In this document: piece after piece, positions 1 through 22,685 of the stretch
Numbering within the stretch: the stretch's first letter is position 1
Layout: every line of letters starts with the position of its first letter
Assembly (NCBI GenBank): GCA_023898645.1
Contig: CP060232.1
Location: forward strand, 1,102,347-1,134,346
Reading direction: 5' to 3'
Length of the DNA: 32,000 nt
From: Candidatus Saccharimonadota bacterium
GTDB lineage: Bacteria > Patescibacteriota > Saccharimonadia > Saccharimonadales > Saccharimonadaceae
Position numbers and translations under genes: made by a program
Notes under the pieces: generated by a model
What the model was told of the DNA's origin: nothing
The model's input: only the letters and a program-made list of their open reading frames with translations
Database searches by the model: none

Positions 1-608
1 TATCGAATAAATCTCAGCGCAGGAATTATTAAAAGCCAGCTAAATTTTGCTATATCAGCATTAAATAGAGCAATCACTATCGAGATCAAAAATATAGCAC
101 CCATCGCTAAAGAACTGAATAGGCCGTTACGTATAGTCTGCTCTGCAATATTCGCACTAAGAAACTTCTTTTTTACGGCATATTGCCAACTCACAAAAGA
201 AATCAATTCAATAACAACGAACGTTGACGCATACAATATCGTGGCCACTTTAGTGTCTGATTCACTCAATAGAGCTGTTGGGAACGGAATAAATGCGACA
301 AAAAGCAATAAGACAAGATTCGACATCATAAAAACTCGGTCATATTGCACAAGAGCACGGTATTTTCTTACGTGTACCGACCAGATTGCACCAATGACAA
401 GAAAGCTCAATACATAGGAAAAGAAACTGGGGATTATCGCTATAAGACCGCTCAGCACTGATGATTCAGAACTAAGGTCAACGTTTTCGGGTAAATGAAT
501 TTCAAGCGCAAGCAAGGTGATTGCGATTGCAAATACGGCATCACTGAAGAATACGAATCTATCCACCCCTATTCTTGTCTGTTCCTCTGCAGATAACGAC
601 ATCGACAT
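1..608 (-). CDS. DUF1211/TMEM175-family putative potassium channel (C-terminus runs off the left window edge)
   Basis: Hand translation of the minus strand from ATG 608..606 stays open to position 1: MSMSLSAEEQTRIGVDRFVFFSDAVFAIAITLLALEIHLPEN...GAIWSVHVRKY... The R-x3-FSDAVFAIAITLL-x-LE motif followed by several hydrophobic helices is the hallmark of this family. The start overlaps the upstream stop (TAATG). It is missing from the ORF track only because it has no stop inside the window. Confidence 0.7.
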   Translation of the reverse strand, partial: MSMSLSAEEQTRIGVDRFVFFSDAVFAIAITLLALEIHLPENVDLSSESSVLSGLIAIIPSFFSYVLSFLVIGAIWSVHVRKYRALVQYDRVFMMSNLVLLLFVAFIPFPTALLSESDTKVATILYASTFVVIELISFVSWQYAVKKKFLSANIAEQTIRNGLFSSLAMGAIFLISIVIALFNADIAKFSWLLIIPALRFIR

Positions 609-1426
609 TAAGCAGCACTCCGGTACGTCAATTCTCGGTCTTTCATAACGGATTTATTAAATGCGCTCGTTCGTATAACGCTCAGAGCGACAACGACTTG
701 AATCAAAACGAATAACCAAAATAGCGTTTTGTCACCGGACATAACGCCCGTATATGCAATCGATACGTCTGTAACAGCGTGAAATATAGCAACTAATAGA
801 ACGCTGCCTCGAGAATTATTAAACACCCACGACGTAAGTATAGATGTCGCAATAGCGGAAATAAGAAAGCCCACAAATGGTAGATTTGCCTGAAACGAGT
901 CCGCAATCATAAACAATGGTATGTGCCAAAGGCCCCAGAGCAGCCCTAAAATCAAACTTGCGTTTAATGGAGTAAACTTTTTTTGCAACCGTGGTAACGC
1001 AAAACCACGCCAAGCCGTTTCTTCTGTAATAAGAAACAACCACCATTCAATTAAGAAAACAAGAAGGAGGCTCGAAGTGGTAATATCTGTGGCAAAATGT
1101 TTATTTTCACCGCCAAACAGATAATATATGAGCAAAGCGACAATAGAAATTATCGGAACCACCACCAAAGAAATGACATACCAAACTGGTTTTACTCTGA
1201 ATCGCACAAGTCGTTTCAATAAATCAATGACAGCCACCTTTCCTCCACTTAATGCCGCGACGCCATATGTCGCTATTGTTAAGCCGAACCAAAAGGCAAG
1301 TGACTGTGGAATGTGCCATGTCAATAACTTGTTTTGTTGCGCTACACTCGTGCCCCACACAAGCCATGGAAGCAAATAAGCCATCCCGAAAAAAATAATA
1401 AGTGGGTGTTTTTTTATTATGTTCAT
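608..1426 (-). CDS. CPBP-family intramembrane glutamic endopeptidase (CAAX protease / Abi family)
   Basis: 272-aa polytopic membrane ORF carrying the three CPBP motifs: EETAWRG (EExxxR), LWGLWHIPLF (FxxxH type) and AIFHAVTD (HxxxD/N). Confidence 0.8.
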   Translation of the reverse strand: MNIIKKHPLIIFFGMAYLLPWLVWGTSVAQQNKLLTWHIPQSLAFWFGLTIATYGVAALSGGKVAVIDLLKRLVRFRVKPVWYVISLVVVPIISIVALLIYYLFGGENKHFATDITTSSLLLVFLIEWWLFLITEETAWRGFALPRLQKKFTPLNASLILGLLWGLWHIPLFMIADSFQANLPFVGFLISAIATSILTSWVFNNSRGSVLLVAIFHAVTDVSIAYTGVMSGDKTLFWLFVLIQVVVALSVIRTSAFNKSVMKDRELTYRSAA

Positions 1427-1648: not shown

Positions 1649-1746
1649 GTATTTGGCTTGAAATATTGCTCTCGCAATTCCTTGGGACTCGATAGATTAT
1701 AGCATAGTGTAAGGGGTCGGACTAGCCCTTGTGTGTTCTACGTCTA

Positions 1747-1775
1747 TTGACTTTATGCTTATTTATTGGTATAGT
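1747..1775 (+). promoter_or_regulatory. Sigma70-like promoter with extended -10, placed for a leaderless transcript of the pilin gene at 1782
   Basis: TTGACT (1747..1752), a 17-nt spacer ending in TGg, then TATAGT (1770..1775). Only 6 nt (attaat) separate the -10 from the ATG at 1782, and there is no Shine-Dalgarno sequence. Confidence 0.5.
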
Positions 1776-1781
1776 ATTAAT

Positions 1782-2204
1782 ATGAAGACAAAGGTTTTCT
1801 TGGGAGTACCAATCATTGCTACTATTTTGGTGGCTAGCTTAGTATTTACCCAAGATACTCATGCAGTTAGCCTCAGTATATCTGCCGGCGCCAGTGCTGC
1901 AAAGGGTACGGATCAAGCAGCTAATTTATTCGGTCAGACAGGTATGTTTCGTACTATAACCAACGTACTGCTATATCTCATTGGTGCCATAAGCGTCATT
2001 ATGCTTATCATAGGTGGACTACGATACGTTGTGTCTGGTGGAGACAGTACTGCCGTACAAAATGCGAAAAATACGATTCTTTACGCCATTGTCGGTATCG
2101 TCGTTGCAATTTTGGCATATGCTATCGTCAGTTTTGTTATTTCATCGTTCACAGGAGTAGGTGGCGGAGCTGGTGGTGGTGGAGTTGCGCCGACTAATAC
2201 GTAA
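1782..2204 (+). CDS. VirB2/TrbC-like T4SS pilin paralog (class A)
   Basis: I prefer the start at MKTKVFLGVPIIATILVASLVFTQDTHA (signal peptide); the track ORF begins upstream at 1731. The core FRTITNVLLYLIGAISVIMLIIGGLRYVVSGGDSTAVQNAKNTILYAIVGIVVAILAYAIVSFV forms a two-helix hairpin with a short basic loop, as in TrbC/VirB2 pilins. It has a Gly-rich C-terminal tail and is about 91 percent identical over the core to the gene at 3788..4222. Confidence 0.75.
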   Translation: MKTKVFLGVPIIATILVASLVFTQDTHAVSLSISAGASAAKGTDQAANLFGQTGMFRTITNVLLYLIGAISVIMLIIGGLRYVVSGGDSTAVQNAKNTILYAIVGIVVAILAYAIVSFVISSFTGVGGGAGGGGVAPTNT

Positions 2205-3213: not shown

Positions 3214-3258
3214 GTAGGGGACAAGTTGTCAAGAGCCTAGAGAAAGTGGAGGATATTT

Positions 3259-3726
3259 ATGGCCCGCAAACAAAATACCAATGACGATCTATTGATCGAA
3301 GACGAATTGGCCGCCGCATTCCTGAATGACGACGATCTTTCAAGTAACGCCGATGATGGCGGTGTCGTCATGCATGATGACGAACAGCTTGAAGACGATT
3401 TTCCAGGACAGTTGGCAGTCGATGTATACGAAACCGAGGATAAGCTGGTTGTTAAAGCCCGCACAGCCGGTGTAAACAAAGATGAGCTAGACGTCAGTAT
3501 ATCTGACGGCATCCTAACAGTCAGCGGTACGCTGAGCAGTGGTGATGACGCCGATGTTAATAACTGGCACATTCAAGAATGCTACTGGGGCGAGTTTAGT
3601 CGTACACTAGCACTTCCTGTTGCCGTTAAGGAAGATGAAGTAGAGGCCGTCTTAAAGGATGGTGTTCTAACCATTACATTTAGCAAGGTTAAGCAAGAAC
3701 ACGCTAAGAAAATTCAGGTTCTGTAA
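3259..3726 (+). CDS. Hsp20/alpha-crystallin family small heat-shock protein
   Basis: The alpha-crystallin domain is recognisable: QLAVDVYETEDKLVVKARTAGVNKDELDVSISDGILTVSG...GEFSRTLALPVAVKEDEVEAVLKDGVLTITFSK. It has an acidic N-terminal arm and a good SD sequence. Confidence 0.9.
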   Translation: MARKQNTNDDLLIEDELAAAFLNDDDLSSNADDGGVVMHDDEQLEDDFPGQLAVDVYETEDKLVVKARTAGVNKDELDVSISDGILTVSGTLSSGDDADVNNWHIQECYWGEFSRTLALPVAVKEDEVEAVLKDGVLTITFSKVKQEHAKKIQVL

Positions 3727-3741
3727 AACTACAGTCCAATC

Positions 3742-3773
3742 AAAAAACTCCGCGATAATCCGCGGAGTTTTTT
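3742..3773. terminator. Bidirectional intrinsic terminator between convergent hsp20 and the pilin array
   Basis: Hairpin aaaaaactccgcg-ataatc-cgcggagtttttt, a GC-rich stem flanked by A- and T-runs. It sits between the stop at 3726 (+) and the stop at 3788 (-). Confidence 0.8.
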
Positions 3774-3787
3774 GATTAGCAGCTTAA

Positions 3788-4222
3788 TTACTGGCCGCTA
3801 GTGAAACTTGAGACAACAAAGTTGACTACAGCGTAGGCGAGAATAGCAACGACCACACCGACAATAGCATAAAGAATCGTATTTTTCGCATTCTGCACAG
3901 CCGTACTGTCGCCGCCAGATACAACGTAACGAATACCGCCGATAATAAGCATGATCACACTAATTGCGCCAATGAGGAACAATAGCACGTTGGTAATGGT
4001 ACGGAATATACCACCCTGGCCACCTGTACCAAAGAGAGTAGACGCGTCACCCTGCTGGTCCTTGCCCTGTGCAGCTCCTGCGCCGTCACTTAGTCCTTGG
4101 TTGAATGATGCGTGCACGGGAACAGGTTGCGCGAACAGACCAAAGCCCAATACCAATGCCGGTACGACAAGCGCCGCCGACAGAAGTTGTTTGATTTTAC
4201 TTTTCATGTATGAACCTTTCAT
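3788..4222 (-). CDS. VirB2/TrbC-like T4SS pilin paralog (class A), last gene of the array
   Basis: Signal peptide MKSKIKQLLSAALVVPALVLGFGLFAQPVPVHA. An alternative start at 4207 is preceded by AAAGG. Variable G/Q-rich segment, then the core FRTITNVLLFLIGAISVIMLIIGGIRYVVSGGDSTAVQNAKNTILYAIVGVVVAILAYAVVNFV. Confidence 0.75.
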   Translation of the reverse strand: MKGSYMKSKIKQLLSAALVVPALVLGFGLFAQPVPVHASFNQGLSDGAGAAQGKDQQGDASTLFGTGGQGGIFRTITNVLLFLIGAISVIMLIIGGIRYVVSGGDSTAVQNAKNTILYAIVGVVVAILAYAVVNFVVSSFTSGQ

Positions 4223-4279
4223 TTTGATTACTTTACTACTTTTATACCAGATGACGGGAGTTTTGTTAAGTGCTAACCA

Positions 4280-4660
4280 TTAACTTTTAAACGCACCGAG
4301 AACGAAGTTGACGATGGCGTACGCTAAGATAGCGACAACTAAACCAATAACCGCATACAGCACAACGTCCTTTGCTGATTTCACTGCTTGCGCGTCACCG
4401 TTACTCGTCGCGTAACGAATACCACCGATGATAATCATTATGACCGCAACAGCACCCAAGAGAAACAGGAGTACGTTCACGACTGTTTTAATTTTATCTT
4501 GAAGATCTTGCGTACCTGTCTGAGTACCGCCAACAGACGTAACTCCGCCTTGTATGCTATCAATTGGGCTTTGGGCTAAAACAGTTGAAGGCAACAGTGG
4601 TGCTGTAGCCAATCCAACTGTTGTCATAATGCCGAGAAGTAGTGTACGTAGTTTATTCAT
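4280..4660 (-). CDS. VirB2/TrbC-like T4SS pilin paralog (class A)
   Basis: Signal peptide MNKLRTLLLGIMTTVGLATAPLLPSTVLA, a variable T/G/Q-rich segment, then the core VVNVLLFLLGAVAVIMIIIGGIRYATSNGDAQAVKSAKDVVLYAVIGLVVAILAYAIVNFV. Confidence 0.75.
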   Translation of the reverse strand: MNKLRTLLLGIMTTVGLATAPLLPSTVLAQSPIDSIQGGVTSVGGTQTGTQDLQDKIKTVVNVLLFLLGAVAVIMIIIGGIRYATSNGDAQAVKSAKDVVLYAVIGLVVAILAYAIVNFVLGAFKS

Positions 4661-4673
4661 ATGGTTTCTCCTA

Positions 4674-5090
4674 TTAGTTTCCTTTCAGTCGTGCCAGTAC
4701 GAAGTTGACAATTGCATACGCCATGATTGCAACGACGAGGCCTATAACAGCATACAACACGGTGTCTTTGGCAGATTTAATCTGTTGTGAATCACCATTA
4801 CTTGTGGTGTATCTGATACCCCCTATGATAATCATGATCACAGCAACTATACCTAGCACGAATAAAATCATGTTGATAATGTTTGTCATAATAGAGGTGA
4901 AGCTGTCGCCAGTTGCGCCACAAATCTGACTCTGGCCAGCGCTAGAGGAGGCTCCGCCACCGGTAGTAGCACCACCAGCACCGCCACCAGGGCAATTCTG
5001 AAACACATTAATAGCCATAGCTGGCACTGGCATAAAACTAGTAAAAATAAGACTGAGACTAATGAGTAATGGTGATAGATATTTTTTCAT
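4674..5090 (-). CDS. VirB2/TrbC-like T4SS pilin paralog (class A)
   Basis: Signal peptide MKKYLSPLLISLSLIFTSFMPVPAMA, a Gly-rich variable segment with two Cys, then the core IINMILFVLGIVAVIMIIIGGIRYTTSNGDSQQIKSAKDTVLYAVIGLVVAIMAYAIVNFV. Confidence 0.75.
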   Translation of the reverse strand: MKKYLSPLLISLSLIFTSFMPVPAMAINVFQNCPGGGAGGATTGGGASSSAGQSQICGATGDSFTSIMTNIINMILFVLGIVAVIMIIIGGIRYTTSNGDSQQIKSAKDTVLYAVIGLVVAIMAYAIVNFVLARLKGN

Positions 5091-5100
5091 ACGTCCTCCT

Positions 5101-5397
5101 TTATTTTGCGACTTGCTGCAATATGAATTGTGTTATACCGGCCGCCATGATGACCACAATTAAACCAACGACAGCATAGGTGATAGTGTTCTTTGCTGCC
5201 TGGATCTGACTACTGTCACCGTTGGCACCTACATAGCGAACACCTCCGATGATAATAGCAAGTACCGCAACAATGCCTGCAATGAAATAAACGACGCCCA
5301 GTAAGTTACCAACCGTAGTACCTGTAATACTAGTAGGGGCACCCTGAAGGTTCAAATCTTCTTTTGAAATCTTAATTGTGTTGTTTGAAGTTGCCAT
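5101..5397 (-). CDS. VirB2/TrbC-like T4SS pilin paralog without an obvious signal peptide
   Basis: 98 aa. The hydrophilic N-terminus MATSNNTIKISKEDLNLQGAP is followed by the core LLGVVYFIAGIVAVLAIIIGGVRYVGANGDSSQIQAAKNTITYAVVGLIVVIMAAGITQFI. The start overlaps the upstream stop (TAATG at 5395..5399). Confidence 0.7.
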   Translation of the reverse strand: MATSNNTIKISKEDLNLQGAPTSITGTTVGNLLGVVYFIAGIVAVLAIIIGGVRYVGANGDSSQIQAAKNTITYAVVGLIVVIMAAGITQFILQQVAK

Positions 5398-5864
5398 TAT
5401 TTGATACTCCCAGCAATAAATTGAACAATGGCAATCGCCATAATTGAAATAACCAGACCAATGATAGCATTTTGGATGGTTTTGCGAGCAGCAACAGTGC
5501 CGCTACTGTTGTCACCCTGTGTCATATATTTAAACCCTCCCCATATAATGAATATGAGTGATGCGTAACCAACGACGTAAAGTAACATATCTACAATGTT
5601 CATGGCGATAATCGTCAGCCATGTGCCAAACCTTTTACCAGTGTCGCCACTACCAACCTCATTGGGTGATTTTATACTTCCGTCACTTTTACATAGTCCA
5701 TCGTACCAATGGGGGAAAATAGTGATACTTCCGCCACACGGATTAGAGCCGCCCGCAGAACTTGCGACGGTAGGCGCCGCATTAACGTATGACACCGGTA
5801 GTAGAGTAAATGCCGCAAGACTTATGAAAGTAATAGCAATTTTATATCTTATATTTCGTAACAT
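5397..5864 (-). CDS. VirB2/TrbC-like T4SS pilin paralog (divergent)
   Basis: Signal peptide MLRNIRYKIAITFISLAAFTLLPVSYVNA, an ectodomain of about 50 aa with two Cys, then the core NIVDMLLYVVGYASLIFIIWGGFKYMTQGDNSSGTVAARKTIQNAIIGLVISIMAIAIVQFI. Confidence 0.7.
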   Translation of the reverse strand: MLRNIRYKIAITFISLAAFTLLPVSYVNAAPTVASSAGGSNPCGGSITIFPHWYDGLCKSDGSIKSPNEVGSGDTGKRFGTWLTIIAMNIVDMLLYVVGYASLIFIIWGGFKYMTQGDNSSGTVAARKTIQNAIIGLVISIMAIAIVQFIAGSIK

Positions 5865-6249: not shown

Positions 6250-7425
6250 CTATTTTATCACGCCTCCGGGTACTAGCCAATTGATGATAGCAATCATAAA
6301 TCCATACACAAATAAACCTATCACGATATCGCGAATCCGCTTCCGTGCGTTTGATACGGCTCCTTGGTCGTCTTGAGCCTGTGCGTACTGAATTGACTCC
6401 CACACTATACCGCCGACAGCCCCTATACCAACCAGTATCGAAAGTGCCTGCACGACATACTGAAGCACCGTACTAAGTACCTCTCCGCCCCTAGCATTTG
6501 TGTCGCAGTTTATAAGATTAGTCTTTGCTTGGCCACATCCGCCTTTAACCGTAGAGGTTGTCGTACCTGGACCGCCAGCATCATTAACACTTGAACCGTC
6601 TGGGCAATTACCGTTTGCATCCGCCGTGCTGCCATCCTTACACTTAGGAGGCGTGGGTGGCGGCGGCAATGTACACTTATTATTTACCCATGTACCTCCG
6701 GCAGCAGAGCATTCATTTGGCGACTTCGCCTTCGTTGCCATACATTGCTGCAGTGTATCGTTGGTAATTTTTGTTCCCGTACCACCATTCTGGTCATAAC
6801 ACTCATTAATCGAGTTATCGATGTTTGTCTCGCACTGCTTTATCTGATTAACATCACTAAGATTAGCGTTGTTACAGGCGCTCGCCACATAGCTATCTAT
6901 GCGATCCTGTTTAGTCTTCGAGTTCGTATTGTAGTCTTGGCCCCCGACCGCTGCGTTACGCTGGTCAATGGCGTTGTCTATGCCACACCCAGACCCCAAG
7001 GTAACTAGCCACAAATCCGTTGGCCCTGAACCATCCGCACCAACATTACCGTTATTACACGTTGTTGCAAACGCTAAAACATCTTTGTCATTACACGCGG
7101 TAGTGTCTATTTCATTGGTATAACAAGATACAAGTGCGTTCGAACAGTTACCCTCTTCAGTACCTGGTACATAAGAAATGGAGCTAAGGCCACCTATCTG
7201 TGCCGTGTTTGCACACTGCCTAACCGCAGCAAGACAGTCACTAGCCTTTATGTATTGCGATACCGACTTGCAGTTACCGCTTACACATGTACCATCATCC
7301 TTTGAGCCAGAGCAAGACGCCTGCGCTGCGTCCTCATACACAAATGAAAAAGAAAATGATGCGGCGATTATACTGACAATTACGAGTAGTTTTTTCATGA
7401 ACAATGTTATTCTCTTAATATTCAT
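6250..7425 (-). CDS. Cysteine-rich ectodomain fused to a class-B VirB2/TrbC-like pilin module (candidate adhesin or tip pilin), first gene of the array
   Basis: 391 aa with a signal peptide ending AAQA (alternative start at 7398, MKKLLV). A secreted region of about 260 aa holds about 20 Cys and a PPPPTPP linker. Next comes the C-x9-C loop GGCGQAKTNLINCDTN. The pilin core follows: VLQYVVQALSILVGIGAVGGIVWESIQYAQAQDDQGAVSNARKRIRDIVIGLFVYGFMIAIINWLVPGGVIK, colinear with 5872..6240. Confidence 0.7.
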   Translation of the reverse strand: MNIKRITLFMKKLLVIVSIIAASFSFSFVYEDAAQASCSGSKDDGTCVSGNCKSVSQYIKASDCLAAVRQCANTAQIGGLSSISYVPGTEEGNCSNALVSCYTNEIDTTACNDKDVLAFATTCNNGNVGADGSGPTDLWLVTLGSGCGIDNAIDQRNAAVGGQDYNTNSKTKQDRIDSYVASACNNANLSDVNQIKQCETNIDNSINECYDQNGGTGTKITNDTLQQCMATKAKSPNECSAAGGTWVNNKCTLPPPPTPPKCKDGSTADANGNCPDGSSVNDAGGPGTTTSTVKGGCGQAKTNLINCDTNARGGEVLSTVLQYVVQALSILVGIGAVGGIVWESIQYAQAQDDQGAVSNARKRIRDIVIGLFVYGFMIAIINWLVPGGVIK

Positions 7426-7519: not shown

Positions 7520-8488
7520 CTATTCAGACGGTGCTTTAATAGAGAGTGTGTCGGGATAGGTGATTATCATTGTTGTAGTTGCGGGCACGCGGTCTTTATT
7601 GTCACTAATATTTTGAAGCTTCGTTATCTTACCAGATGTCTTATTAATCCAAAACTTCACTTTCACAACACCAGATTGTTGATTGGCAGTCGCGTAGGAT
7701 ACGGTGCGACCAAGCAACTTATCTACCTGTAAACTGGCTGTCTTTAATCCGTTCTGATTCAGAATAATCGTATAAATATCTGTGTCGTTGCCTGAATTAA
7801 CGCCATCAATTGTATAAACGTTATTTTCCTTCACGATGTCCAATAGGCTTTGAACTCCGTCACCAAAATTGCCAGCAAATACATATCTTGGTATCGTGCT
7901 AGCAGTAAATCTTAGACCAAATGGGTCATATGCCGACACGTCCGCTTTTTTGCTCAGATCGCTTAGATGTTTCCATACACCCGTTTGGACTAAGCCGTTT
8001 GGAGCCATAGTGCCAGACACATTGTCAATCTGAGAAAACTTCGCGTAAAAATCTCCTGAATCTAAAGCGATTAATGACCCCGCAACTCTACCTTTATTAA
8101 GCCCATACGCATCGCTATCTTTAGATACGGAGACACTGTAATTAACGTCCACCCTAGGCGCACTCTTCATGGAGAAGTCTGATGTCGTCGTCATGTCTAT
8201 CTTCAATGATTCACTACTGGCGGTTCCGTCTGCAACGATTTTGATATATTTTTCGTTCGCAAACTGTCTAATTGCTTGATAAAACTCTCTCTCCGGGACG
8301 CCTTGTACCCATACAAATACCGCCGCGCCAAGACCACCAACCAATAGAATTATGAGTGTGACTGTAAATATAAGCTTCAACTTTTTATTAGATTTCGACC
8401 GCTGGCCCGTTGCGGGATCAAGGTGTAAGTAATCAGGAACTTGATAGGGCATACCGTTTTGATTTGAGTTTTGTTGATTTGGTTGCAT
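7520..8488 (-). CDS. Bitopic membrane protein of unknown function (Q/N-rich cytoplasmic N-terminus, one TM helix, ectodomain of about 250 aa)
   Basis: 322-aa ORF with TM segment LKLIFTVTLIILLVGGLGAAVFVWV. I recognise no motif. It is co-oriented with and 94 nt upstream of the pilin array, and divergent from the VirB6-like gene. Confidence 0.6.
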   Translation of the reverse strand: MQPNQQNSNQNGMPYQVPDYLHLDPATGQRSKSNKKLKLIFTVTLIILLVGGLGAAVFVWVQGVPEREFYQAIRQFANEKYIKIVADGTASSESLKIDMTTTSDFSMKSAPRVDVNYSVSVSKDSDAYGLNKGRVAGSLIALDSGDFYAKFSQIDNVSGTMAPNGLVQTGVWKHLSDLSKKADVSAYDPFGLRFTASTIPRYVFAGNFGDGVQSLLDIVKENNVYTIDGVNSGNDTDIYTIILNQNGLKTASLQVDKLLGRTVSYATANQQSGVVKVKFWINKTSGKITKLQNISDNKDRVPATTTMIITYPDTLSIKAPSE

Positions 8489-8569: not shown

Positions 8570-10639
8570 ATGATGCAGCGCTTGTCGAACCAACTGTTTG
8601 GCGGATCGCGCACACTTCTTCGGCGTGGGGCGTTATTCATGTTTGCCGGTGTTATGGCACTAGTCGTGACAGTATCGCCACTTGCAACACGTCCAGCATC
8701 AGCTCTTAGTTTTAGTCTGACCGGCAACAGTTGCGCCATCGAAACTGTAGGGTGGGTTGTTTGCCCCACGATGCGCTCTATTGCGCGCCTAGCTGACTAT
8801 GGTTTTTCCTATATAAATCAAAGTTCTCTCGCTATAAACTATAAAATTTTCGATAATTCGAGCAAAACCTTCAAGGCATGGGAAATCATGCGCAACATCG
8901 CCAACGGCATGTTTGTTGTAGTCTTTTTATACATTATATATGGCTACCTTATAGGTCGAACCGGCGGAAACTACACCATCAAGCGGCTACTACCACGCCT
9001 CGTAATCACAGCCATCGTCGTCAACACTTCGTATTTCCTAGGGGTTATTCTAGTTGATATATCAAATATTATCGGTGATTCCATATGGAGTATATTGAAA
9101 AATATTTACGGCAACGGCAGTCCTGTCATGCCAATTGGCGGAAGCGCCAATCCACTTAGTGATGGCAATTTGACCAAAATGGCCGCGGCTGCCATGGGCA
9201 ACACAGGAATGGTATGGGTACTAATGCCTCTAATTGCTGCCGTCACTATTACTGTCGCTATCATCAGCGCCGCCATGGTGATACTTGTCATCATGCGCGA
9301 AGCACTTGTTGCCGCACTTATTTTTGCGTCACCGTTATTAATAGTCCTTTATATATTGCCCAATGTTGAGCGTTTTTCCGGACAAGCAATACGACTATTC
9401 CTACAGCTCTTGTTGCTGTACCCAATTATTGCGCTACTGTTAGGAACTGGTCAAATTGTCAGCCTGGCGGCCGGTAGCTGGAGTAATACATCTGCATTTT
9501 ACGGCGGTGGAACTATGAGTATTGTGCCCGACCTTGTTGCTGCGGCAGCAGCCGTAGTACCCTTACTAGCCGTATGGTTCGTCTTTAAGAATATGTCGTC
9601 CATCATGAACGCTGCCGGTACACGATTAACTGCAAGCATTTCCGGTCGACGAGGGGGTGGTAAAGATGACGAAAAAGCTCGCGTTACCGGCAACGCGACG
9701 GCTGGTGCCGCCAACAATAAAAACACCGGCGGGTTACTAGGCCCTATGAATCGACGCCAGGCTTATAGCCGTAATCGACGCCATTCATCGCTTGGTAATA
9801 GTAGTCTTCCGGGTGTTATACGAAGTTCCGGCGGAGAAGGCGGAGCAGGCGGCCTTGGTGGTGTCGGCGGAGAAGGCGGAGCAGGCGGTCTTGGTGGTGG
9901 GGGCGGAGCAGGCGGTCTTGGTGGTGACGGTGGAATCACAGATGTAAGACCAGAGGTTGCAAGCGGAGCGGCGTTACAAAATACCCTTAATAACGTCATA
10001 AACCCAGGTGACACAACCGCGAAACTCGAAGGTCAACAAGAAGCTCGGGTTGAGGCGGATGTAAAATCCGGCGGCGTGGATGCTGGCGAGATAGCAAAGT
10101 CGCTGTCTACTTCTGAACTACAAACTCAAGAAAAAGAGAAGAAAAAGCAGGTTACCGCGAAAGACATATTCAATAGTCTCAACAAAGATCGTGGACATTC
10201 GTCAAAAGACAAAGACCGAAAGTTCGGTGCCGGACCCGCTCCTGCAGGCGGTGGCGGTGGCGAAGCTTCGTCTGTCGGTCAGCCGTCAGCACCAGTTGCT
10301 AGTTATCAAGCACCTCAGATCGCTCAGGGTAGTAATAATGTTGTGAGTGGCAGCTCCGCTCCGCAACAACCTGTCCAAGTAATTGCCGTGCCCGTGCAGG
10401 TCGATGCTTCAACGTTACTTGGCCAAAATCATCCACCCGACAATGTCAGTCAGCCTCCAATCAGTGGAACAGAGGAAAAAGCAAAAGCGCGAGCACAAAA
10501 ATACCTTTTTGACACCGAAAAAGACCTTAGTGAAGCACGTAATGCCGATGACATCTTAAAGCACGCAAACGGCATACTAACTGAACAACCCCACACATCG
10601 AGTGCACCTGAAAATGGCGACAAGGAAGACGAGAGGTAA
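8570..10639 (+). CDS. VirB6/TrbL-like polytopic T4SS membrane protein, paralog A, with a long disordered Gly/Lys/Glu-rich tail
   Basis: 689 aa with a signal/anchor and the C-x9-C motif NSCAIETVGWVVCP. About 6-7 TM helices carry IKRLLPRLVITAIVVNTSYF, SPLLIVLYILPNVERF and VPLLAVWFVF, all shared with 17843..20164. The architecture (N-terminal loop, polytopic core, hydrophilic tail) is that of VirB6/TrbL/ConG-type proteins. Confidence 0.65.
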   Translation: MMQRLSNQLFGGSRTLLRRGALFMFAGVMALVVTVSPLATRPASALSFSLTGNSCAIETVGWVVCPTMRSIARLADYGFSYINQSSLAINYKIFDNSSKTFKAWEIMRNIANGMFVVVFLYIIYGYLIGRTGGNYTIKRLLPRLVITAIVVNTSYFLGVILVDISNIIGDSIWSILKNIYGNGSPVMPIGGSANPLSDGNLTKMAAAAMGNTGMVWVLMPLIAAVTITVAIISAAMVILVIMREALVAALIFASPLLIVLYILPNVERFSGQAIRLFLQLLLLYPIIALLLGTGQIVSLAAGSWSNTSAFYGGGTMSIVPDLVAAAAAVVPLLAVWFVFKNMSSIMNAAGTRLTASISGRRGGGKDDEKARVTGNATAGAANNKNTGGLLGPMNRRQAYSRNRRHSSLGNSSLPGVIRSSGGEGGAGGLGGVGGEGGAGGLGGGGGAGGLGGDGGITDVRPEVASGAALQNTLNNVINPGDTTAKLEGQQEARVEADVKSGGVDAGEIAKSLSTSELQTQEKEKKKQVTAKDIFNSLNKDRGHSSKDKDRKFGAGPAPAGGGGGEASSVGQPSAPVASYQAPQIAQGSNNVVSGSSAPQQPVQVIAVPVQVDASTLLGQNHPPDNVSQPPISGTEEKAKARAQKYLFDTEKDLSEARNADDILKHANGILTEQPHTSSAPENGDKEDER
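9830..9928 (+). repeat. In-frame tandem repeat (36+36+27 nt) encoding GGEGGAGGLGGx units inside the VirB6-like tail
   Basis: ggcggagaaggcggagcaggcggccttggtggtgtc, then ggcggagaaggcggagcaggcggtcttggtggtggg, then ggcggagcaggcggtcttggtggtgac. The first two units are 33/36 identical. The third lacks the first 9 nt. Confidence 0.85.
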
Positions 10640-13973: not shown

Positions 13974-14642
13974 TTACAACTTAACTGCAAGAGCTATTTT
14001 CTTGAGAGCTGCTAAGGAGTTGACTTCACTCATATAAATATCGTCGTCTGGCTGCGCAACTACAAATCGATACACAGTAAGCCCGTCGATAACCATCAAA
14101 TGATACTCCCGGCTGTTACCAATCGTTTGGGCGTGTCTGAAGTAAAGAGGAAGGCCATTTACCTTTCCTGCCTGCATAGTAGCTATGTAGATATGATCGT
14201 CATCAAGCGCCTTTTTATCCTTGTATATTCTTTTGTCTATATACAGACTCGACGCCACGCCGTCGATTCGAACAAACGGAAAGGTGAGTGTTTGACCAAG
14301 GTTGCCGTTGTAATTAAACACCTTGCTTACTTGAGGGTCTCCAACAGACCTTGCACTACTACCTAAAGCAGTGACCACTTGAGCCTTACTTGCAATCGAC
14401 TTCACATTAAGACTAACTCCATCTTCGATACCTGCTCGAAATCCGTCAGCTCCCACGCCACGTTGCACTCCGGGGTTTGGGTCTTTTGGCATCATTGTGA
14501 TTGATAAAACTGTTATTGCGACCGCGACTGCGCCTATGATACAGAAAATGGCCAATACAGCTATCTGTTTCTTTCGACCTATAATCACCTCTACCTCTTG
14601 TTCAAGAGGTTTTTTGTCATGAGGTTGAGTGTTTTTTGTCAT
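13974..14642 (-). CDS. Bitopic membrane protein of unknown function
   Basis: 222 aa with N-terminal TM helix IAVLAIFCIIGAVAVAITVLSI followed by a soluble domain of about 170 aa. I recognise no motif. It is the only minus-strand gene between the two + strand T4SS modules. Confidence 0.55.
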   Translation of the reverse strand: MTKNTQPHDKKPLEQEVEVIIGRKKQIAVLAIFCIIGAVAVAITVLSITMMPKDPNPGVQRGVGADGFRAGIEDGVSLNVKSIASKAQVVTALGSSARSVGDPQVSKVFNYNGNLGQTLTFPFVRIDGVASSLYIDKRIYKDKKALDDDHIYIATMQAGKVNGLPLYFRHAQTIGNSREYHLMVIDGLTVYRFVVAQPDDDIYMSEVNSLAALKKIALAVKL

Positions 14643-14730
14643 TCTACTCTTATACTATCACAGGTATTACACTCTCGGTAAAGTACTTGTCCTTAAAGTG
14701 GTGCTATTGTATCCTTATGGTGTACGTATC

Positions 14731-16824
14731 ATGAATAAAAAAACAGTACAGTTCATAACCCACAGTAAAAAATCTATGCGACGCGCCGTTCATCTACCAG
14801 CCGCAGTGCCCGCACTTATCCTTGTTGGGCTTTTTGTAGTTGGTGGAGTAGGTATGGTTCAGCAGGTCCATGCTGCCCAATCAATGTCTGACTACTGTAG
14901 TAAGTACTCGTCAAATGATGACAATAACGCTTGTAAAGACGGCGTAAAAGGTCTTGACTGTGGTGCTTATCAAATAATATTTGCTCAAGATCCAACTACC
15001 GCCAATAAAACCACAGGTATATGCAACCAAGCAGCCAAAGATCGTGCCTCTGGCATCGTCTCGAACTCACTATTAACGCCCACTCCCACACCTACACCCC
15101 CTGCAACTCCAAGCACGGCACCATCTACAAACCCGAATCCTACACCTACCGTTTCTGCAACAGCAACTCCAAGTGCCACGCCTACAGCTACACCTACCGC
15201 AACACCAAGCGCCACACCCACACCTACAGACGCGTCACCAGGAGCTAGCCCTGTTAATTTCCAAAATTTCCTCGAACAAGCAAAAAGCCTATCTCAGTAT
15301 ATCGACATCCTCCACAATAACGGACCCGATGCTAATGTTGACACCACAAAGGGAGTTAGTAATAGCCCATCGTCGTATGTAAACGGTGCCGGCAAGCAAC
15401 AACCAATAAAGATTCTCCAACAAGGCACCGGCAACTCACCAATTATTCTGTTCTTTAACGGTGGTGGCTGGCACAACAACGACTTAGACGGCGAAAGGAT
15501 TCAGAGTGCTGAAGACAATGGTGAAAACCCTTGGAATCGTGGGTATGCAATGCTCGATGTAACATATCGACTTGGTTCAAGTGGTATTTACTATATGTAC
15601 GAAGACGTCATGCGCGCCATTCAACACGTTCACGACAACGCCGCCTTATATGGTGCAGACCCAAACAAAATGGTCATTTGGGGAGACAGTGCTGGCGGTA
15701 GCTTAGTTATGCGAGCAGCGGCTAGTGGTAAAACAGGAGCTAAAGCTGCAGTAGGCTGGTCCGCGCCGACTAATGCATTCACGGTATTGTTTAGATCATT
15801 TGGCTCTCTAGCCATCGGCATAGACCACTCAACATGCGCTCCGACCGATCTTGCAGGTTTAGCTAACTTCGCCGATCTACTTGGTGGCGGTAGCGGAGAC
15901 GTAGCGCAATACGGTCAGGGCCTCAGTAGTAATGACTTTTCCGCAATCGGCTATAGTGGTGACGCTGTAAACGTTGCTGGCTTTAATCCACTTGCACTCC
16001 TCACAGAAGGATTTGTTGCAGGAAAAAACCTACTCGGCGCAGCAAAAAACTTCGAATCAATCACAAATCAAATAGGTAGCAAAGATTTCTCGGGTCTTGC
16101 GGGAAGCACACTAAATCTCGCTAGTAAAAAATTTGTTGAATGTATTGATAACTTTAATGTTATGTCGCCGGCATTGTTCGCTAGCCCAGACACGCCACCA
16201 AGCTTCTTGGCGGAGTTTGAAAATGACGGACTCATCGGTCCAGACCAAGCTTATGGCATGCGCGATAAATTACGGCAGCTAGGTATTAAATCGGAAGCCT
16301 GGGTGCTACCTGGTAGTGATGATTGTATGCAAAAGGCAATCGCACCACTGGGTCTTGGGTGCCACCTGGGATATTATTCGCCCTTCATTCGTCCTACGCT
16401 CGACTTCCTCGACAGTGTCATCAACACGGGGGACCTACCAGCTGGTGGTGGTACTAGTGCTACCGGAGGTGGTTCGACGAATTCAAACGGTTCAGGCAGC
16501 GACTCTGGTGGTGGATCGAGTGGGAATTCTAGCAATAGCGGGAGTGGGGGCGGCTCAAACAACTCTGGCTCCGGCGGCTCTAGTAGTAATCAAGATAGCG
16601 CTACGACAGTCGCTCAGCAAAAAGCAGACTGCGAAAGCGCTGGAAAGACTTGGGTAACCATCACGAAGAACATAGGCTATTGCCCTCGGCCAACTCTACA
16701 AGAAAAATCAAATGGCTATTACACTGCATCCTATGTTAAATCAGGTGACTCGGGACATTATAACTGTCCAAAAGGCGGCACCTTTACCCAAGACCCTCAA
16801 AAGGGCAACATCTGTAAACTCTGA
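14731..16824 (+). CDS. Secreted alpha/beta-hydrolase (esterase/lipase, hormone-sensitive-lipase-like fold) with Cys-rich terminal modules
   Basis: I prefer the start at MNKKTVQF... with the signal/anchor PAAVPALILVGLFVVGGVGMVQQVHA; the track start at 14629 overlaps the divergent gene. It has the oxyanion-type motif ILFFNGGGWH and the nucleophile elbow VIWGDSAGGSL. A TP-rich linker separates the N-terminal 4-Cys module, and a G/S/N-rich linker separates the C-terminal 4-Cys module. Confidence 0.65.
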   Translation: MNKKTVQFITHSKKSMRRAVHLPAAVPALILVGLFVVGGVGMVQQVHAAQSMSDYCSKYSSNDDNNACKDGVKGLDCGAYQIIFAQDPTTANKTTGICNQAAKDRASGIVSNSLLTPTPTPTPPATPSTAPSTNPNPTPTVSATATPSATPTATPTATPSATPTPTDASPGASPVNFQNFLEQAKSLSQYIDILHNNGPDANVDTTKGVSNSPSSYVNGAGKQQPIKILQQGTGNSPIILFFNGGGWHNNDLDGERIQSAEDNGENPWNRGYAMLDVTYRLGSSGIYYMYEDVMRAIQHVHDNAALYGADPNKMVIWGDSAGGSLVMRAAASGKTGAKAAVGWSAPTNAFTVLFRSFGSLAIGIDHSTCAPTDLAGLANFADLLGGGSGDVAQYGQGLSSNDFSAIGYSGDAVNVAGFNPLALLTEGFVAGKNLLGAAKNFESITNQIGSKDFSGLAGSTLNLASKKFVECIDNFNVMSPALFASPDTPPSFLAEFENDGLIGPDQAYGMRDKLRQLGIKSEAWVLPGSDDCMQKAIAPLGLGCHLGYYSPFIRPTLDFLDSVINTGDLPAGGGTSATGGGSTNSNGSGSDSGGGSSGNSSNSGSGGGSNNSGSGGSSSNQDSATTVAQQKADCESAGKTWVTITKNIGYCPRPTLQEKSNGYYTASYVKSGDSGHYNCPKGGTFTQDPQKGNICKL
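15076..15227 (+). repeat. Low-complexity Thr/Pro/Ala/Ser-rich linker-coding repeat
   Basis: Encodes TPTPTPTPPATPSTAPSTNPNPTPTVSATATPSATPTATPTATPSATPTPT, with imperfect ac(n)cc(n) dinucleotide-codon reiteration in the DNA. Confidence 0.7.
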
Positions 16825-17842: not shown

Positions 17843-20164
17843 ATGTTGGGCTTGTCTATAAGAAAACATACAAAGAAAATAGTCGTCGGTGCAATTATTG
17901 TCCTTGGGCTTTTTTCCGCATTTCCTACCATTAGCCCTCAATCAGCTTACGCGGCACCACCTGTCGCTCCAACTAGCCCGACCACTGGAACAGCAAACGG
18001 CGGTACCGGGTCCGGCACCTCAACCTCTCAAAACAGCGGAACTTCCGCCCCCACCACCTGCGCCATCGAAAAAATCGGATGGATTTTATGCCCCGTCATT
18101 GAATGGGGTGGCAAGATTGGCGACGGCGCCTTCAACATGTTGGCGAAATTCTTTTTGCAAACCGAACCCGAACTACTGTCGAGCGATAGTACGAACGGTA
18201 CGAAAATTGCCTGGGAACTGGCACGCAACCTGGCAAACATCATGTTTATCATCGCGTTCCTGACGATCATCCTTTCACAGGTTACAGGCAGGGGAATCGA
18301 CAACTACGGCATCAAACGCATGTTACCGCGACTGATCATCGCGGCCGTCGCGGTAAACGTATCGTATTACATATGCCAGCTGATGGTAGATTTGTCGAAC
18401 ATTGCCGGTTGGGAAATCGAGAGTTTCCTTGTGCAAACCGCTCATCAAGTGTCGTCTTATGTAGCCATGCCTATTCAAACAAGCATCGACAACCAAACGT
18501 CAAGCGGCAACTTGGGCACACTCGCAACAATCGCCATCGCCGTGATGGCGCTAGGTGTTGTTGTATATCTTTTACCGGCTCTGTTCTCGATCATCATGGT
18601 CATCGCTGTCACTTGTATGACCATCGTTGTTATACTCCTCCTCCGAAAGGCAATCATAGTTCTACTTGTCGTCGTTTCACCAATTGCGTTCGTGATGTAT
18701 TTGCTGCCAAATACGGAAAAACTCTATAACAAATGGCTAAAGATGTTTGGCCAATTGTTGATGGTTTTTCCAATTGTGTCGCTCCTGTTTGGTGGCGGAC
18801 AACTCGCTAGCGCAATCATCCTAGTGGCAGGATCTCATGGCAATACTCCGTGTACCTCAACGCAAACCGAAAATTGCAGTGTATACACCGACTCGAGTAA
18901 GCAATGTATACAACTACCGAGGATTGCAGATGCCAGCGGTACTATCGCCTCACAACAGGACACCGGTGCAAAGGTTGCGAATTGCGGTCCAAATAGTACG
19001 CCATTCCTTCTGGGGCTGGTTGCTTCTGGCATAGCCGTCGTGCCACTTCTAGCTGTATGGTCGGTGCTTAAAGGCGCCCTCTCGGCCGCCGGAGCAATTG
19101 GCGGCATGGTGCAAAATGTCAGCAAGCCTGCCATAGGCTGGGCATCAAAGCGCCGCAAAGAAGACATGGAAGCCCTCGGCGACAGGCGTACGCTTGCTGC
19201 TATGAATCACCCTATGGGCTTTTCAGACGTCGCCACCTTTGGAGCAAAGCGGCGAAAAGCGTTTAAAGATTACGCTCGTTCGAGCACGAAACAAGAGTTG
19301 GGATATGTTACTCAACAAGAAGCTGCATTAAAAGCGAAAGATAGTGATGCATACGCCCGTAAGCTTGCAGGCGGTAGTGCATTACCAGTTAGCATGGGTG
19401 GTGCAACTAGCGAAGGCGTTGAGCGAGCACTCCGACGAGCACAGTTTACTATCGATAAAGCTGAGATTGAAGAAGTTAATGCAACAGAGGCAACGATTGA
19501 CAGGATTGGTGTAACTGGTGAGCAGCTTTCCGAATTAGCACAAGGTGAAAGTGTGAAGTTAGCCGACGGCAATACGCTGGACGCTAAAACTAATAAAAAC
19601 ATACAAAAAGCAGCGTTGCAGAAACTCGCCAAACAAAGTGACGTCGGAAATCTGGAAAAAGCCCTTGCGAAAATACCTGCAGGTGACAAAGATATGGGTA
19701 ACTTCGCCGCGCGCGCTGTTGAACAAAACTGGTCTGGCATAAAATCAAAGGCAGCACACATAACAACTGGCGCAGTTACTGATAGCTTAAAAACTGGCAA
19801 AGCCGTCGATTTAGATGCTGGCATGAAAGAGGCCATGGGTGGCATGGATGCTAACCTTATGTCTACACAAAAGACCGGTACGCTCAATAGGCTTAATAAG
19901 GTACTGGCAGCTACAGCCGCAGTAAACCCACAAGACAAGAACGTAATGAACGCTAGGGCGGCTGCAAACGCCTTGCGTTCAAATGTACAAATCTATGACA
20001 AGGTCAATGAGGCAAGTAAAGACTTTGTAGATAAGATTGCCGGCCCTCGTACTCAGGCCACACCGACTCCCGTAGCGGGAACCCCTAATACTACTACTGG
20101 ACCTTCAAACCCTACCAGCGGAACATCTGGACCTTCTACAGGTGGTCCCAACCCAACTCCTTAA
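17843..20164 (+). CDS. VirB6/TrbL-like polytopic T4SS membrane protein, paralog B, with a hydrophilic C-terminal domain of about 330 aa
   Basis: 773 aa with a signal peptide ending AYA, a T/G/S/P-rich spacer and the C-x9-C motif TTCAIEKIGWILCP. Its TM core carries IKRMLPRLIIAAVAVNVSYY, SPIAFVMYLLPNTEKL and VPLLAVWSVL, paralogous to 8570..10639. It also has a Cys-containing loop between late TM helices. Confidence 0.65.
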   Translation: MLGLSIRKHTKKIVVGAIIVLGLFSAFPTISPQSAYAAPPVAPTSPTTGTANGGTGSGTSTSQNSGTSAPTTCAIEKIGWILCPVIEWGGKIGDGAFNMLAKFFLQTEPELLSSDSTNGTKIAWELARNLANIMFIIAFLTIILSQVTGRGIDNYGIKRMLPRLIIAAVAVNVSYYICQLMVDLSNIAGWEIESFLVQTAHQVSSYVAMPIQTSIDNQTSSGNLGTLATIAIAVMALGVVVYLLPALFSIIMVIAVTCMTIVVILLLRKAIIVLLVVVSPIAFVMYLLPNTEKLYNKWLKMFGQLLMVFPIVSLLFGGGQLASAIILVAGSHGNTPCTSTQTENCSVYTDSSKQCIQLPRIADASGTIASQQDTGAKVANCGPNSTPFLLGLVASGIAVVPLLAVWSVLKGALSAAGAIGGMVQNVSKPAIGWASKRRKEDMEALGDRRTLAAMNHPMGFSDVATFGAKRRKAFKDYARSSTKQELGYVTQQEAALKAKDSDAYARKLAGGSALPVSMGGATSEGVERALRRAQFTIDKAEIEEVNATEATIDRIGVTGEQLSELAQGESVKLADGNTLDAKTNKNIQKAALQKLAKQSDVGNLEKALAKIPAGDKDMGNFAARAVEQNWSGIKSKAAHITTGAVTDSLKTGKAVDLDAGMKEAMGGMDANLMSTQKTGTLNRLNKVLAATAAVNPQDKNVMNARAAANALRSNVQIYDKVNEASKDFVDKIAGPRTQATPTPVAGTPNTTTGPSNPTSGTSGPSTGGPNPTP

Positions 20165-21566: not shown

Positions 21567-22685
21567 ATGGCGGTTTACAAAGTACCTCAGGACGTCGAGG
21601 CGGACGACAAACTGATCGGTCCGTTCAGTTTTCGCCAATTCATCTATTTGATAGTGGTGGCTATTTCGATAGCCGGCGCCTGGGGGCTTTCCCAAGTGTT
21701 TATACCTTTGGCGATTATACCTTTGCCGATAATAGTCTTTTTCGCGGCTCTTGCCTTACCGTTACGTAAAGATCAGCCCATGGAAGCCTATCTGTCTGCA
21801 GTGGTGTCTTTTTATTTCCTAAAATCGCGCAAACGATTCTGGATACCCGACGGTATCGACTCTTTCGTAACGATCATACCGCCAAAAGACGCTGATCGCA
21901 TACTGACAAAAGGTTTCGACGATGTCGAGGCGACAAAACGACTCGGCTACCTGGCTGACCTGGTAGACACTCACGGCTGGGCTATACGTGGTGCCGGCGG
22001 CACACCTGATACGTCAATTAGCACCGACCTGTACTATGAGTCACAGCAAACTGTCGACATGATGGACGGCTCGACGCCACAAGCTCAGGCAATGGCGCAA
22101 CACCTACAAAAAGAGGCGGCTGGTCATCGTCAGGATGCAATCGAGACTATGCAAACAGCTAAAAAAGCCGCCCCGGTAGCGACAACACAAGCTCCTGCTA
22201 CCGTCACGGTGAAATCAAATACACCACCAGCCCCTCAAGCCACAGCTACAATCAAGACTACACCGAATGCTCCGGCTCAACCTGCGCAAGTCCCACCGCC
22301 AGAAAGCAATGACACACCACCGGTATCTAAACTTCCCCCTCTAGAGAAAATTCGTGCGGCTCGAATGTCTAATGCGGCTCAACAAAAGGCAGAAAAGGAC
22401 TCCAAAGACGCACTCGCTCTCGTAAACGGACTAATCGAAGAGGCGGGCGAAAAAAAGAGTACCCCTGCTGTTAAACCAGTGCCCGAAAAACCCGCAAGCA
22501 CTAGCGTTCCTACCCCCGATACTGCTACAATGGTGCTAACGCAAAAACAGGCAGGTGATTTGTCACAGCAAAAGGATGTTTCTGTCGAAACGCTCGCTAA
22601 AGAGGCAAACCGCGTCGCGAAGAAAAATGAAGCCGATAATAAGATTTTGAAAGACGGCGACGAAGTAACAATTTCGTTTCACTAG
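21567..22685 (+). CDS. PrgI-family (VirB3-like) T4SS membrane protein with a long Pro/Ala/Thr/Gln-rich C-terminal extension
   Basis: The N-terminus MAVYKVPQDVEADDKLIGPFSFRQFIYLIVVAISIAGAWGL...PLRKDQPMEAYLSAVVSFYFLKSRKRFW matches the PrgI pattern: a-x-VP-x-D...(D/E)K-x-x-G-x-(L/F)-(T/S)-x-RQ, then a two-TM hairpin, then D/G-x-P-x-E. It sits directly upstream of the VirB4 genes, as VirB3 homologs do. Confidence 0.7.
   Translation: MAVYKVPQDVEADDKLIGPFSFRQFIYLIVVAISIAGAWGLSQVFIPLAIIPLPIIVFFAALALPLRKDQPMEAYLSAVVSFYFLKSRKRFWIPDGIDSFVTIIPPKDADRILTKGFDDVEATKRLGYLADLVDTHGWAIRGAGGTPDTSISTDLYYESQQTVDMMDGSTPQAQAMAQHLQKEAAGHRQDAIETMQTAKKAAPVATTQAPATVTVKSNTPPAPQATATIKTTPNAPAQPAQVPPPESNDTPPVSKLPPLEKIRAARMSNAAQQKAEKDSKDALALVNGLIEEAGEKKSTPAVKPVPEKPASTSVPTPDTATMVLTQKQAGDLSQQKDVSVETLAKEANRVAKKNEADNKILKDGDEVTISFH

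Follow-up and report, generated by a model that had tools for sequence, protein, structure and literature searches.

A cysteine-rich, putatively extracellular head on a VirB2-type pilin in a Saccharibacterial type IV secretion locus

The 32,000-nucleotide stretch of a Candidatus Saccharimonadota genome analyzed here (contig CP060232.1; "the window" below) carries a type IV secretion system (T4SS) locus with an array of small VirB2-like pilin genes, and beside this array lies a longer gene in which a pilin module is joined to a cysteine-rich N-terminal domain. In the list of open reading frames (ORFs), this gene spans 6250..7425 on the minus strand and encodes a 391-aa product; the 122-aa pilin encoded next door is referred to as pilin-1. 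From N to C terminus, the long protein is composed of a signal peptide, a Cys-rich ectodomain, a linker, a C-x9-C loop, a VirB2-type hairpin, and a VPGGVIK tail:

7318..7425, minus strand: signal peptide MNIKRITLFMKKLLVIVSIIAASFSFSFVYEDAAQA (residues 1-36), with an AQA/S cleavage motif
6580..7317, minus strand: Cys-rich ectodomain, called the A2-type head (residues 37-282)
6538..6579, minus strand: flexible G/T/S-rich linker AGGPGTTTSTVKGG (residues 283-296), with a low predicted local distance difference test score (pLDDT) and with indels among orthologs
6505..6537, minus strand: C-x9-C loop CGQAKTNLINC (residues 297-307), common to the short pilin-1
6274..6486, minus strand: VirB2-type hairpin of two hydrophobic helices and a charged loop (QDDQGAVSNARKRIRD), placed by PF18895, the AlphaFold2 (AF2) model, and identity to pilin-1
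6250..6273, minus strand: C-terminal tail VPGGVIK and stop codon, from the ortholog alignment

By inspection, the signal peptide has its hydrophobic core at residues 7-31 and AQA/S at residues 34-37. The head that follows (246 aa, 25.3 kDa, pI 4.35, 18 Cys) is abundant in G, N, T, S, and D and holds only one Phe and two Trp. An initial annotation, made from the sequence alone, had described the ectodomain as rich in N, D, T, and G and as carrying about 20 Cys, an even number; the composition agrees, and the whole protein has exactly 20 Cys (residues 38, 47, 52, 64, 71, 94, 101, 111, 123, 147, 184, 198, 209, 228, 239, 251, 262, 274, 297, and 307). It had also read a PPPPTPP motif as a hinge, which did not hold: the motif (residues 254-260) is not conserved and lies inside the modeled head region, between the conserved Cys251 and Cys262, and the low-confidence linker region falls at ~283-318 instead. 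Across orthologs, the linker has numerous indels, a very variable length, and no conserved motif. In the C-x9-C loop, C297 is invariant and C307 is conserved in at least 90%; the hairpin has hydrophobic segments at residues 319-343 and 367-391 and ARKRIR in its loop; and in the tail P386, G387, and V389 are invariant among 17 orthologs. Pilin-1-type proteins have an invariant W-L-V-P-G-G-V tail, a possible site of processing.

The identical protein at NCBI is a "hypothetical protein" (USN96559.1) with a start that gives 382 aa. We favor the 391-aa start, because the N-terminal start motif M-x-[IVL]-K-[QR] is kept in orthologs and because the same 391-aa product was called on 5 other contigs from independent assemblies. 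The source label of USN96559.1, Candidatus Nomurabacteria, is probably wrong, since all 22 related loci in a species-representative genome collection are from Saccharibacteria/Saccharimonadia. A promoter scan of the window returned sites no more numerous than in shuffled sequence.

Is the C-terminal module a pilin? The only Pfam domain in the 391-aa protein is PF18895 (T4SS_pilin), which matches residues 315-384 (E 1.4e-7, 32 bits) above its curated cutoff of 26.6 bits. From the C-x9-C loop to the C terminus, the last 99 aa are 47% identical to the 122-aa neighbor (BLASTP, E 2e-30), and pilin-1 is the small pilin nearest to this hairpin. These matches bear out the initial annotation's view that the hairpin is colinear with the 122-aa gene and shares its C-x9-C loop, with GGCGQAKTNLINC beginning at residue 295 of the long protein and GSCGTTKTQLISC at residue 27 of the neighbor. 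AF2 places hairpin helices at residues 314-352 and 354-384. The 122-aa protein itself has no PF18895 match; its family membership is based on its resemblance to the long gene's hairpin. With VirB2/TrbC-type pilins, the long protein has in common a profile match, a leader followed by two helices with a positive loop, and co-encoded VirB4, VirB3/PrgI, and VirB6-like proteins; those pilins are small proteins made up essentially of the hairpin (~70-130 aa when mature), however, whereas this one has 391 aa and a 246-aa head. A profile of the pilin-1 hairpin had 1163 matches at E<=1e-10, the top 120 of which are all 110-186 aa long; the short form is thus the norm. Many long pilins score 15-21 bits on PF18895, under the cutoff, which is probably why they are unannotated, and Pfam-based surveys are likely to miss them.

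The fusion recurs in ~85 homologs with the same architecture. A search with the single sequence gave 50 homologs (293-499 aa), of which 16 align colinearly from end to end at 30-45% identity. A head-only profile found 69 matches among 1.84 billion representative proteins, nearly all of them 320-500 aa long with the head at about residues 35-300. The module behind the head is a pilin C-terminal module in 58 of the 69 and VirB6-like in four, the rest being fragments, and the head was almost never found without a T4SS membrane module. As a family, A2 heads comprise ~230-300 aa after a signal peptide or transmembrane (TM) segment, have 12 invariant Cys, and are followed by a T4SS membrane module.

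What kind of domain is the head? In a full-length AF2 model built on 17 sequences, pLDDT is mostly 80-95 over residues 45-280 and <50 over 283-318. The head modeled alone (mean pLDDT 82.8, predicted template-modeling score 0.74) has ten helices and a small beta hairpin and is otherwise all-alpha. This confidence rules out a disordered or low-complexity ectodomain, an outcome that the initial annotation had named as fatal to its proposal, and the cysteines are conserved across orthologs: twelve in the head are invariant in the alignment and four more nearly so. Cysteines are also lost in pairs—52/64 covary perfectly, and 38/47, 123/147, and 262/274 nearly so. Their number is even in all 17 aligned heads and, counted after the signal-peptide core, in 83 of 84 complete family members (range, 12-24); the single odd member has one Cys within its signal peptide. 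The head is therefore predicted to be a folded, disulfide-locked extracellular domain. Apart from Cys, its invariant residues are of the types N, A, G, S, and W and do not suggest a catalytic site. Cryo-electron microscopy of other Saccharibacterial surface filaments found paired cysteines with disulfide potential (Pam pilus preprint), making extracellular disulfides plausible in this group; the Pam pilus was set aside as a relevant system, as the preprint concerns an unrelated Ig-like pilus and does not address T4SSs. The window has no thiol-oxidoreductase CxxC gene, and its only CxxC is in a ComF-like zinc ribbon.

The head has no Pfam match, PF18895 being confined to the hairpin, and a sequence-profile search of the PDB gave 0 matches at E<=1. 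A Foldseek comparison of the predicted ectodomain, which the initial annotation had suggested as a check, gave only noise: against the PDB, the full-length and head-only models had best E values of 4.2 and 2.1, with template-modeling scores <0.2, and nothing better came from BFVD. The head, with no detectable PDB relative, may be a new fold. Homology to VirB5 (examples in the PDB are 1R8I and 3ZCI) was rejected, there being no Pfam, PDB-profile, or Foldseek match.

How is the gene placed within the locus? Its surroundings include the following features:

608..1426, minus strand: CPBP/Rce1-like intramembrane protease gene, near the pilin array
3736..3779, minus strand: strong terminator-like hairpin with a 20-bp stem, at the end of the pilin array
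3788..5864, minus strand: five further small VirB2-like pilins (155, 98, 138, 126, and 144 aa), all matching PF18895
5872..6240, minus strand: short pilin-1 (122 aa), a paralog of the long gene's hairpin
7520..8488, minus strand: 322-aa single-TM protein, upstream of the long pilin and 94 bp away
8570..10639, plus strand: first VirB6/TrbL-like protein (689 aa, multi-TM), divergent from the pilin array and homologous to the head-bearing proteins P0074 and P0089 described below
14629..16824, plus strand: BD-FAE/alpha-beta-hydrolase esterase (731 aa), embedded in the T4SS cluster
17843..20164, plus strand: second VirB6/TrbL-like protein (773 aa), the positional counterpart of the head-VirB6 fusion P0074
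21567..25474, plus strand: core T4SS genes (PF12666, PF19044/PF12846)
21567..22685, plus strand: PrgI/VirB3-like protein, followed by a 294-aa protein
23570..25474, plus strand: VirB4-like ATPase of the core T4SS

Beyond the 322-aa gene, the cluster also encodes a 1095-aa protein and a phage-tail-type lysozyme along with the BD-FAE esterase. The 322-aa protein, which lies between the first VirB6-like protein and the long pilin, has no Cys and no Pfam match; 11 of the 22 related loci have a counterpart in the same position, only 22-30% identical to it, and L001, the locus of the closest ortholog, has none. The long gene had been introduced as the first gene of the pilin operon. It is the first of the pilin genes, but the operon may begin earlier, because the 322-aa gene lies upstream on the same strand. 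The designation "VirB6-like" is based on homology (E 1e-28 to 1e-40) to proteins with precomputed PF19590 (TrbL_3) matches, on the structure-based annotation of the counterpart in Southlakia epibionticum, and on position in the locus; in our own Pfam run, the precomputed PF19590 match of P0074 and P0089 was not reproduced.

With ORFs mapped in the 22 related loci and the P0002 locus, the same order emerged in ~20 species of Saccharibacteria: a divergent VirB6-like gene, often a gene like that of the 322-aa protein, the long pilin, six small pilins, hsp20, and a comF-like gene. The long Cys-rich pilins at the syntenic position have 246-502 aa and 10-22 Cys, and short pilin-1 orthologs follow them in at least 15 loci. 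The six small pilins form six distinct orthogroups in constant order, 50-86% identical across the ~20 species (L001, L003-L024), which points to an ordered hetero-oligomeric structure, as far as sequence can tell, rather than to the antigenic or host variation of PMC12102498. S. epibionticum ML1 has an array of six pilins, SEML1_0014-0019 (132, 185, 103, 126, 127, and 138 aa), all of them essential, followed by Hsp20 and a 224-aa protein (PMC10633639). The sizes of the genes, their order, and their flanks suggest that the window's six small pilins correspond to this array and that the 391-aa gene is an additional, seventh pilin placed first, before the six; S. epibionticum has no long pilin.

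Several other features of the locus deserve mention. An eighth PF18895 pilin (157 aa; 1731..2204, plus strand) stands isolated on the far side of the array and of the comF-like gene, is 60-80% identical in relatives, and resembles in position SEML1_0024, a nonessential "pilin" of S. epibionticum. The hsp20 gene (3259..3726, plus strand; PF00011, E 2.9e-19) overlaps a 111-aa ORF (3237..3572, minus strand) that is its low-complexity shadow, and the apparent conservation of this ORF is due to the overlap. A Gly-rich repeat (GGEGGAGGLGG and similar; 9760..10020, plus strand) lies in the C-terminal hydrophilic half of the first VirB6-like protein, and its opposite strand reads as a spurious proline-rich ORF. 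The arrangement of the BD-FAE esterase is also kept in another locus, L026, and the enzyme may modify the envelope for the T4SS.

Do head and hairpin evolve together? Among the 17 orthologs, mean identity is 29% in the head (25% without the shared Cys) and 63% in the hairpin; for the remaining pilins, VirB6, and the 1095-aa protein at these loci, identity to the window's versions is 40-86%. The head diverges about twice as fast as its anchor. It is also exchanged: 24 of 51 long pilins, and 10 of 22 species loci, have an A2-type head, and in the other 27 long pilins, this anchor bears an unrelated Cys-rich N-terminal region. One alternative class (P0024, P0025, and P0036) consists of repeated C-P-x-G-x-E-[YF]-H-x-x-D-x-x-C-W units. 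One head of this class gives a subthreshold match to CBM_14, a peritrophin-A domain that binds chitin (E 0.0017; 18.9 bits, with the cutoff at 22.1), which is no more than a lead. Fast divergence, together with the swapping of unrelated heads on the same anchor, makes the head read as an interaction surface, and a fast-evolving, exchangeable head is as expected of a specificity determinant, to judge from the sequences.

The A2 head is not restricted to pilins. It occurs on VirB6-like proteins in four independent clusters: P0074 (842 aa), P0089 (890 aa), P0106 (844 aa), and P0076, which is truncated at a contig end. These fusions consist of an N-terminal TM segment, the head, and a VirB6-like multi-TM body, with no pilin module, and their bodies match the 689-aa protein of the window (blastp E 1e-28 to 1e-40). 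One locus (L027) lacks a long pilin and has a head-bearing VirB6 (head E 2e-20) beside six small pilins of 131-138 aa. In L026, the protein that corresponds to the second VirB6-like protein of the window carries the head (E 9e-30), and pilin-1 has a different, shorter Cys-rich extension. Within the window, the head profile found no second copy in the VirB6-like proteins or neighbors. Both VirB6-like proteins of the window have a C-x9-C of their own (C55/C65 in the 689-aa protein, C73/C83 in the 773-aa protein), with the consensus C-x-[IV]-[ED]-x-[IV]-G-W-[IV]-[IVL]-C-P just after the N-terminal TM segment or linker. In the VirB6 fusions, the head is inserted immediately before this motif, and in the pilin before a different C-x9-C. 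By this sequence evidence, the head is a module attached to either of two T4SS membrane components in what appears to be the same outside-facing topology.

How might such a protein work? To build a pilus, VirB2 subunits are pulled out of the membrane and stacked in layers with five-fold symmetry. In the T-pilus—76 Å in diameter, with a rise of 13.4 Å and five subunits per layer—the VirB2 termini face outward, so an N-terminal head would be external. In the R388 system, a pentamer of VirB5 rests on one of VirB6, and pilus growth between the two pushes VirB5 to the tip (PMC9259494). In the mechanism we propose, the long protein would be exported by Sec and its signal peptide removed; the 25-kDa N-terminal head would fold outside the cell, all-alpha and with about nine disulfides, and the C-terminal VirB2-type hairpin would lie in the membrane with its N terminus out, its loop in, and its C terminus out. 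Because the hairpin is paralogous to pilin-1, which leads the row of six small pilins, the T4SS would recruit the long protein like a pilin and incorporate it as the first (distal) layer, or sparsely. The head would then stand at the tip of a short pilus or tube growing from the VirB6-like platform, in the place that VirB5 holds in Gram-negative systems, and would contact the host cell surface there.

Two arguments favor this position. The minimal cross-section of the head is ~1180 Å², against ~640 Å² of outer surface per subunit; the head is thus too bulky for every subunit, which makes a homopolymer unlikely and favors a tip or sparse role. In addition, a head on VirB6 and a head on the first pilin layer would both occupy VirB5's place, and we therefore propose a tip or initiator pilin. 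Our favored reading, to which we give about an even chance of being right, is that the long protein is a specialized minor pilin of the Saccharibacterial T4SS that presents a host-contact head at the tip or start of the pilus, a functional analog of VirB5 and not a homolog. Pilus incorporation, tip position, and host binding we infer from context and prediction; the VirB6 fusions, the faster divergence of the head, and head swapping lend the tip or adhesin role indirect support.

Several points weigh against it. The steric argument is built on the dimensions of the T-pilus, which may not hold for this system, and no VirB2-type pilus has been shown in any Saccharibacterium. The hairpin is modeled with only moderate confidence (pLDDT 53-74 in AF2), and the disulfides are predictions from Cys conservation, parity, and co-loss. 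The head resembles no known adhesin or VirB5, so a binding function rests on context. The T4SS of S. epibionticum is essential with its six pilins, which means that a head on a pilin is not universally required. Finally, in two loci (L018 and L024), the long form directly precedes the gene of the 155-aa type and has apparently replaced the short pilin-1.

A larger structure may be involved. Cryo-electron tomography of Mycosynbacter amalyticus, a Saccharibacterium, revealed a lance-like tube that measures 8.98 nm by 70 nm and ends in a "barb" (PMC11880426). Its width is in the range of conjugative pili. The lance has not been assigned to these pilin genes. That the pilin array forms the tube of such a lance and the head its barb is speculation. 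As a broader and more doubtful extension, the Cys-rich heads might be the device by which the essential Saccharibacterial T4SS recognizes or penetrates the host, in which five long pilins (or head-VirB6 proteins) form the barb of the ~9-nm lance or conduit between parasite and host, replace VirB5 with an unrelated disulfide-locked fold, and set the host range through head swapping.

Could the long protein instead be a fixed component? In that case, the hairpin would only anchor or dock it near the VirB6-like platform, and the head would be a stationary cap, gate, or wall-spanning collar. We consider this unlikely but well short of negligible: the same head is tethered to VirB6-like proteins, which should stay in the membrane, Saccharibacterial pili are only a "potential" in PMC12857230, and a 25-kDa head is hard to fit into a filament. 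However, the hairpin keeps the hallmarks of pilin-1 (47-63% identity, C-x9-C, and the PGGV tail), which exceeds the needs of a simple anchor, and the L018 and L024 long forms occupy the pilin-1 slot itself. Nor would a fixed cap obviously need fast divergence and head swapping.

A separate short pilin-1 is already encoded next door, which counts against a second alternative, a pro-protein whose head is cut off in the linker and released as an effector or toxin, or serves as a long leader, leaving an ordinary pilin-1. VirB2-family propilins are processed, with N-terminal cleavage and modification described for F and T pilins; the disordered linker comes just before the position that matches the mature N terminus of the 122-aa pilin; and the CPBP/Rce1-like protease gene is nearby (608..1426). 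Yet the long form has no hydrophobic segment or AxA before the C-x9-C, so signal peptidase cannot cut there, and a linker that varies so widely in length and has no conserved motif offers no evident site. The VirB6 fusions would require a second, independent cleavage logic. Taken together, we regard this pro-protein scheme as improbable.

More remote is a head-decorated pilus in which every subunit carries the domain. The outward-pointing VirB2 N termini would allow it, and a linker of ~14-35 residues could let the heads splay, but the ~1180 Å² of the head exceeds the ~640-970 Å² available per subunit. The six other conserved pilins encoded alongside, the shortness of the best 120 of the 1163 pilin-1 matches, and the lack of a long form in the cultured S. 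epibionticum also speak against it, and we hold it to be very improbable. A spurious ORF, or two genes joined by a frameshift or misassembly—the error that would have undone the initial annotation—has next to no chance of being correct: nothing but the slightly shorter NCBI start (382 aa) could be cited for it, and it is refuted by dozens of colinear full-length orthologs from many independent metagenomes and metagenome-assembled genomes, by the identical 391-aa product on the 5 other contigs, and by the near-constant linkage of the head to a T4SS membrane module.

How does a tip or initiator pilin of this kind compare with known systems? By its C-terminal 95 aa, the long protein is a genuine member of the VirB2/TrbC-type pilins (PF18895; SEML1_0014-0019, PMC10633639; Patescibacterial arrays in PMC12102498): it has a signal peptide, two helices, and a charged loop, and its gene stands at the front of their conserved array, within the T4SS locus that they also occupy. 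Unlike the VirB2-like pilins described so far (~100-185 aa), it has a 246-aa head with 18 Cys between signal peptide and hairpin, and unlike the SEML1_0014-0019 array, that of the window has a seventh, extra gene before the six. Extended VirB6 proteins (PMC12857230) are matched by the relatives P0074, P0089, and P0106, which are VirB6-like proteins extended by the A2 head; in the extended VirB6 proteins described so far, however, the large hydrophilic domains added to the core are central or C-proximal, whereas the head is N-terminal and in the window sits on a pilin. As do the PrgB-type adhesins of Gram-positive T4SSs, the long protein could serve target-cell contact for a monoderm-type T4SS, but it has no LPXTG motif and no adhesin Pfam domain, and its anchor is a pilin hairpin instead of the cell wall.

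Type IVb pili have tip minor pilins, CofB and TcpB, with a large extra C-terminal domain. The long pilin would be like these in combining a pilin module for incorporation with a bulky domain that confines it to the tip, where it would initiate assembly and mediate binding; the pilin fold and machinery are unrelated, and the extra domain is N-terminal here and C-terminal there. VirB5 is a separate, soluble periplasmic protein that is not known to have a TM hairpin or to be Cys-rich. The head is like VirB5/TraC/CagL in its proposed place on VirB6, ahead of the VirB2 layers and at the tip (PMC9259494), and like VirB5 in being mainly alpha-helical and ~220-250 aa long. Its alternative fusion to a VirB6-like or a VirB2-like partner mirrors the two contacts of VirB5. 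Unlike VirB5, it is covalently tethered, and the two are similar neither in sequence nor in predicted fold.

That Patescibacteria have arrays of VirB2-like pilins, and that these are essential, was already known (PMC10633639, PMC12102498, PMC12857230). In the literature, we found no account of a large Cys-rich head on a pilin, of the swapping of such heads, or of a head-VirB6 fusion, and neither PMC10633639 nor PMC12102498 mentions a pilin-head fusion. The T4SS is essential for epibiotic growth in the one genetically tested Saccharibacterium, where its role is "completely unknown" (PMC11665869), and a survey of 3,035 Patescibacteria genomes detected no T4SS-associated adhesin (PMC12102498). 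Against this background, the A2-head family is a testable candidate for the host-contact part of the system, as a predicted extracellular domain hard-wired to either a pilin or the VirB6 platform. It widens the range of VirB2-type pilins to include a carrier of a 25-kDa head, and the tip model, if true, would offer a way to study host range and the lance or conduit structures that cryo-electron tomography has revealed.

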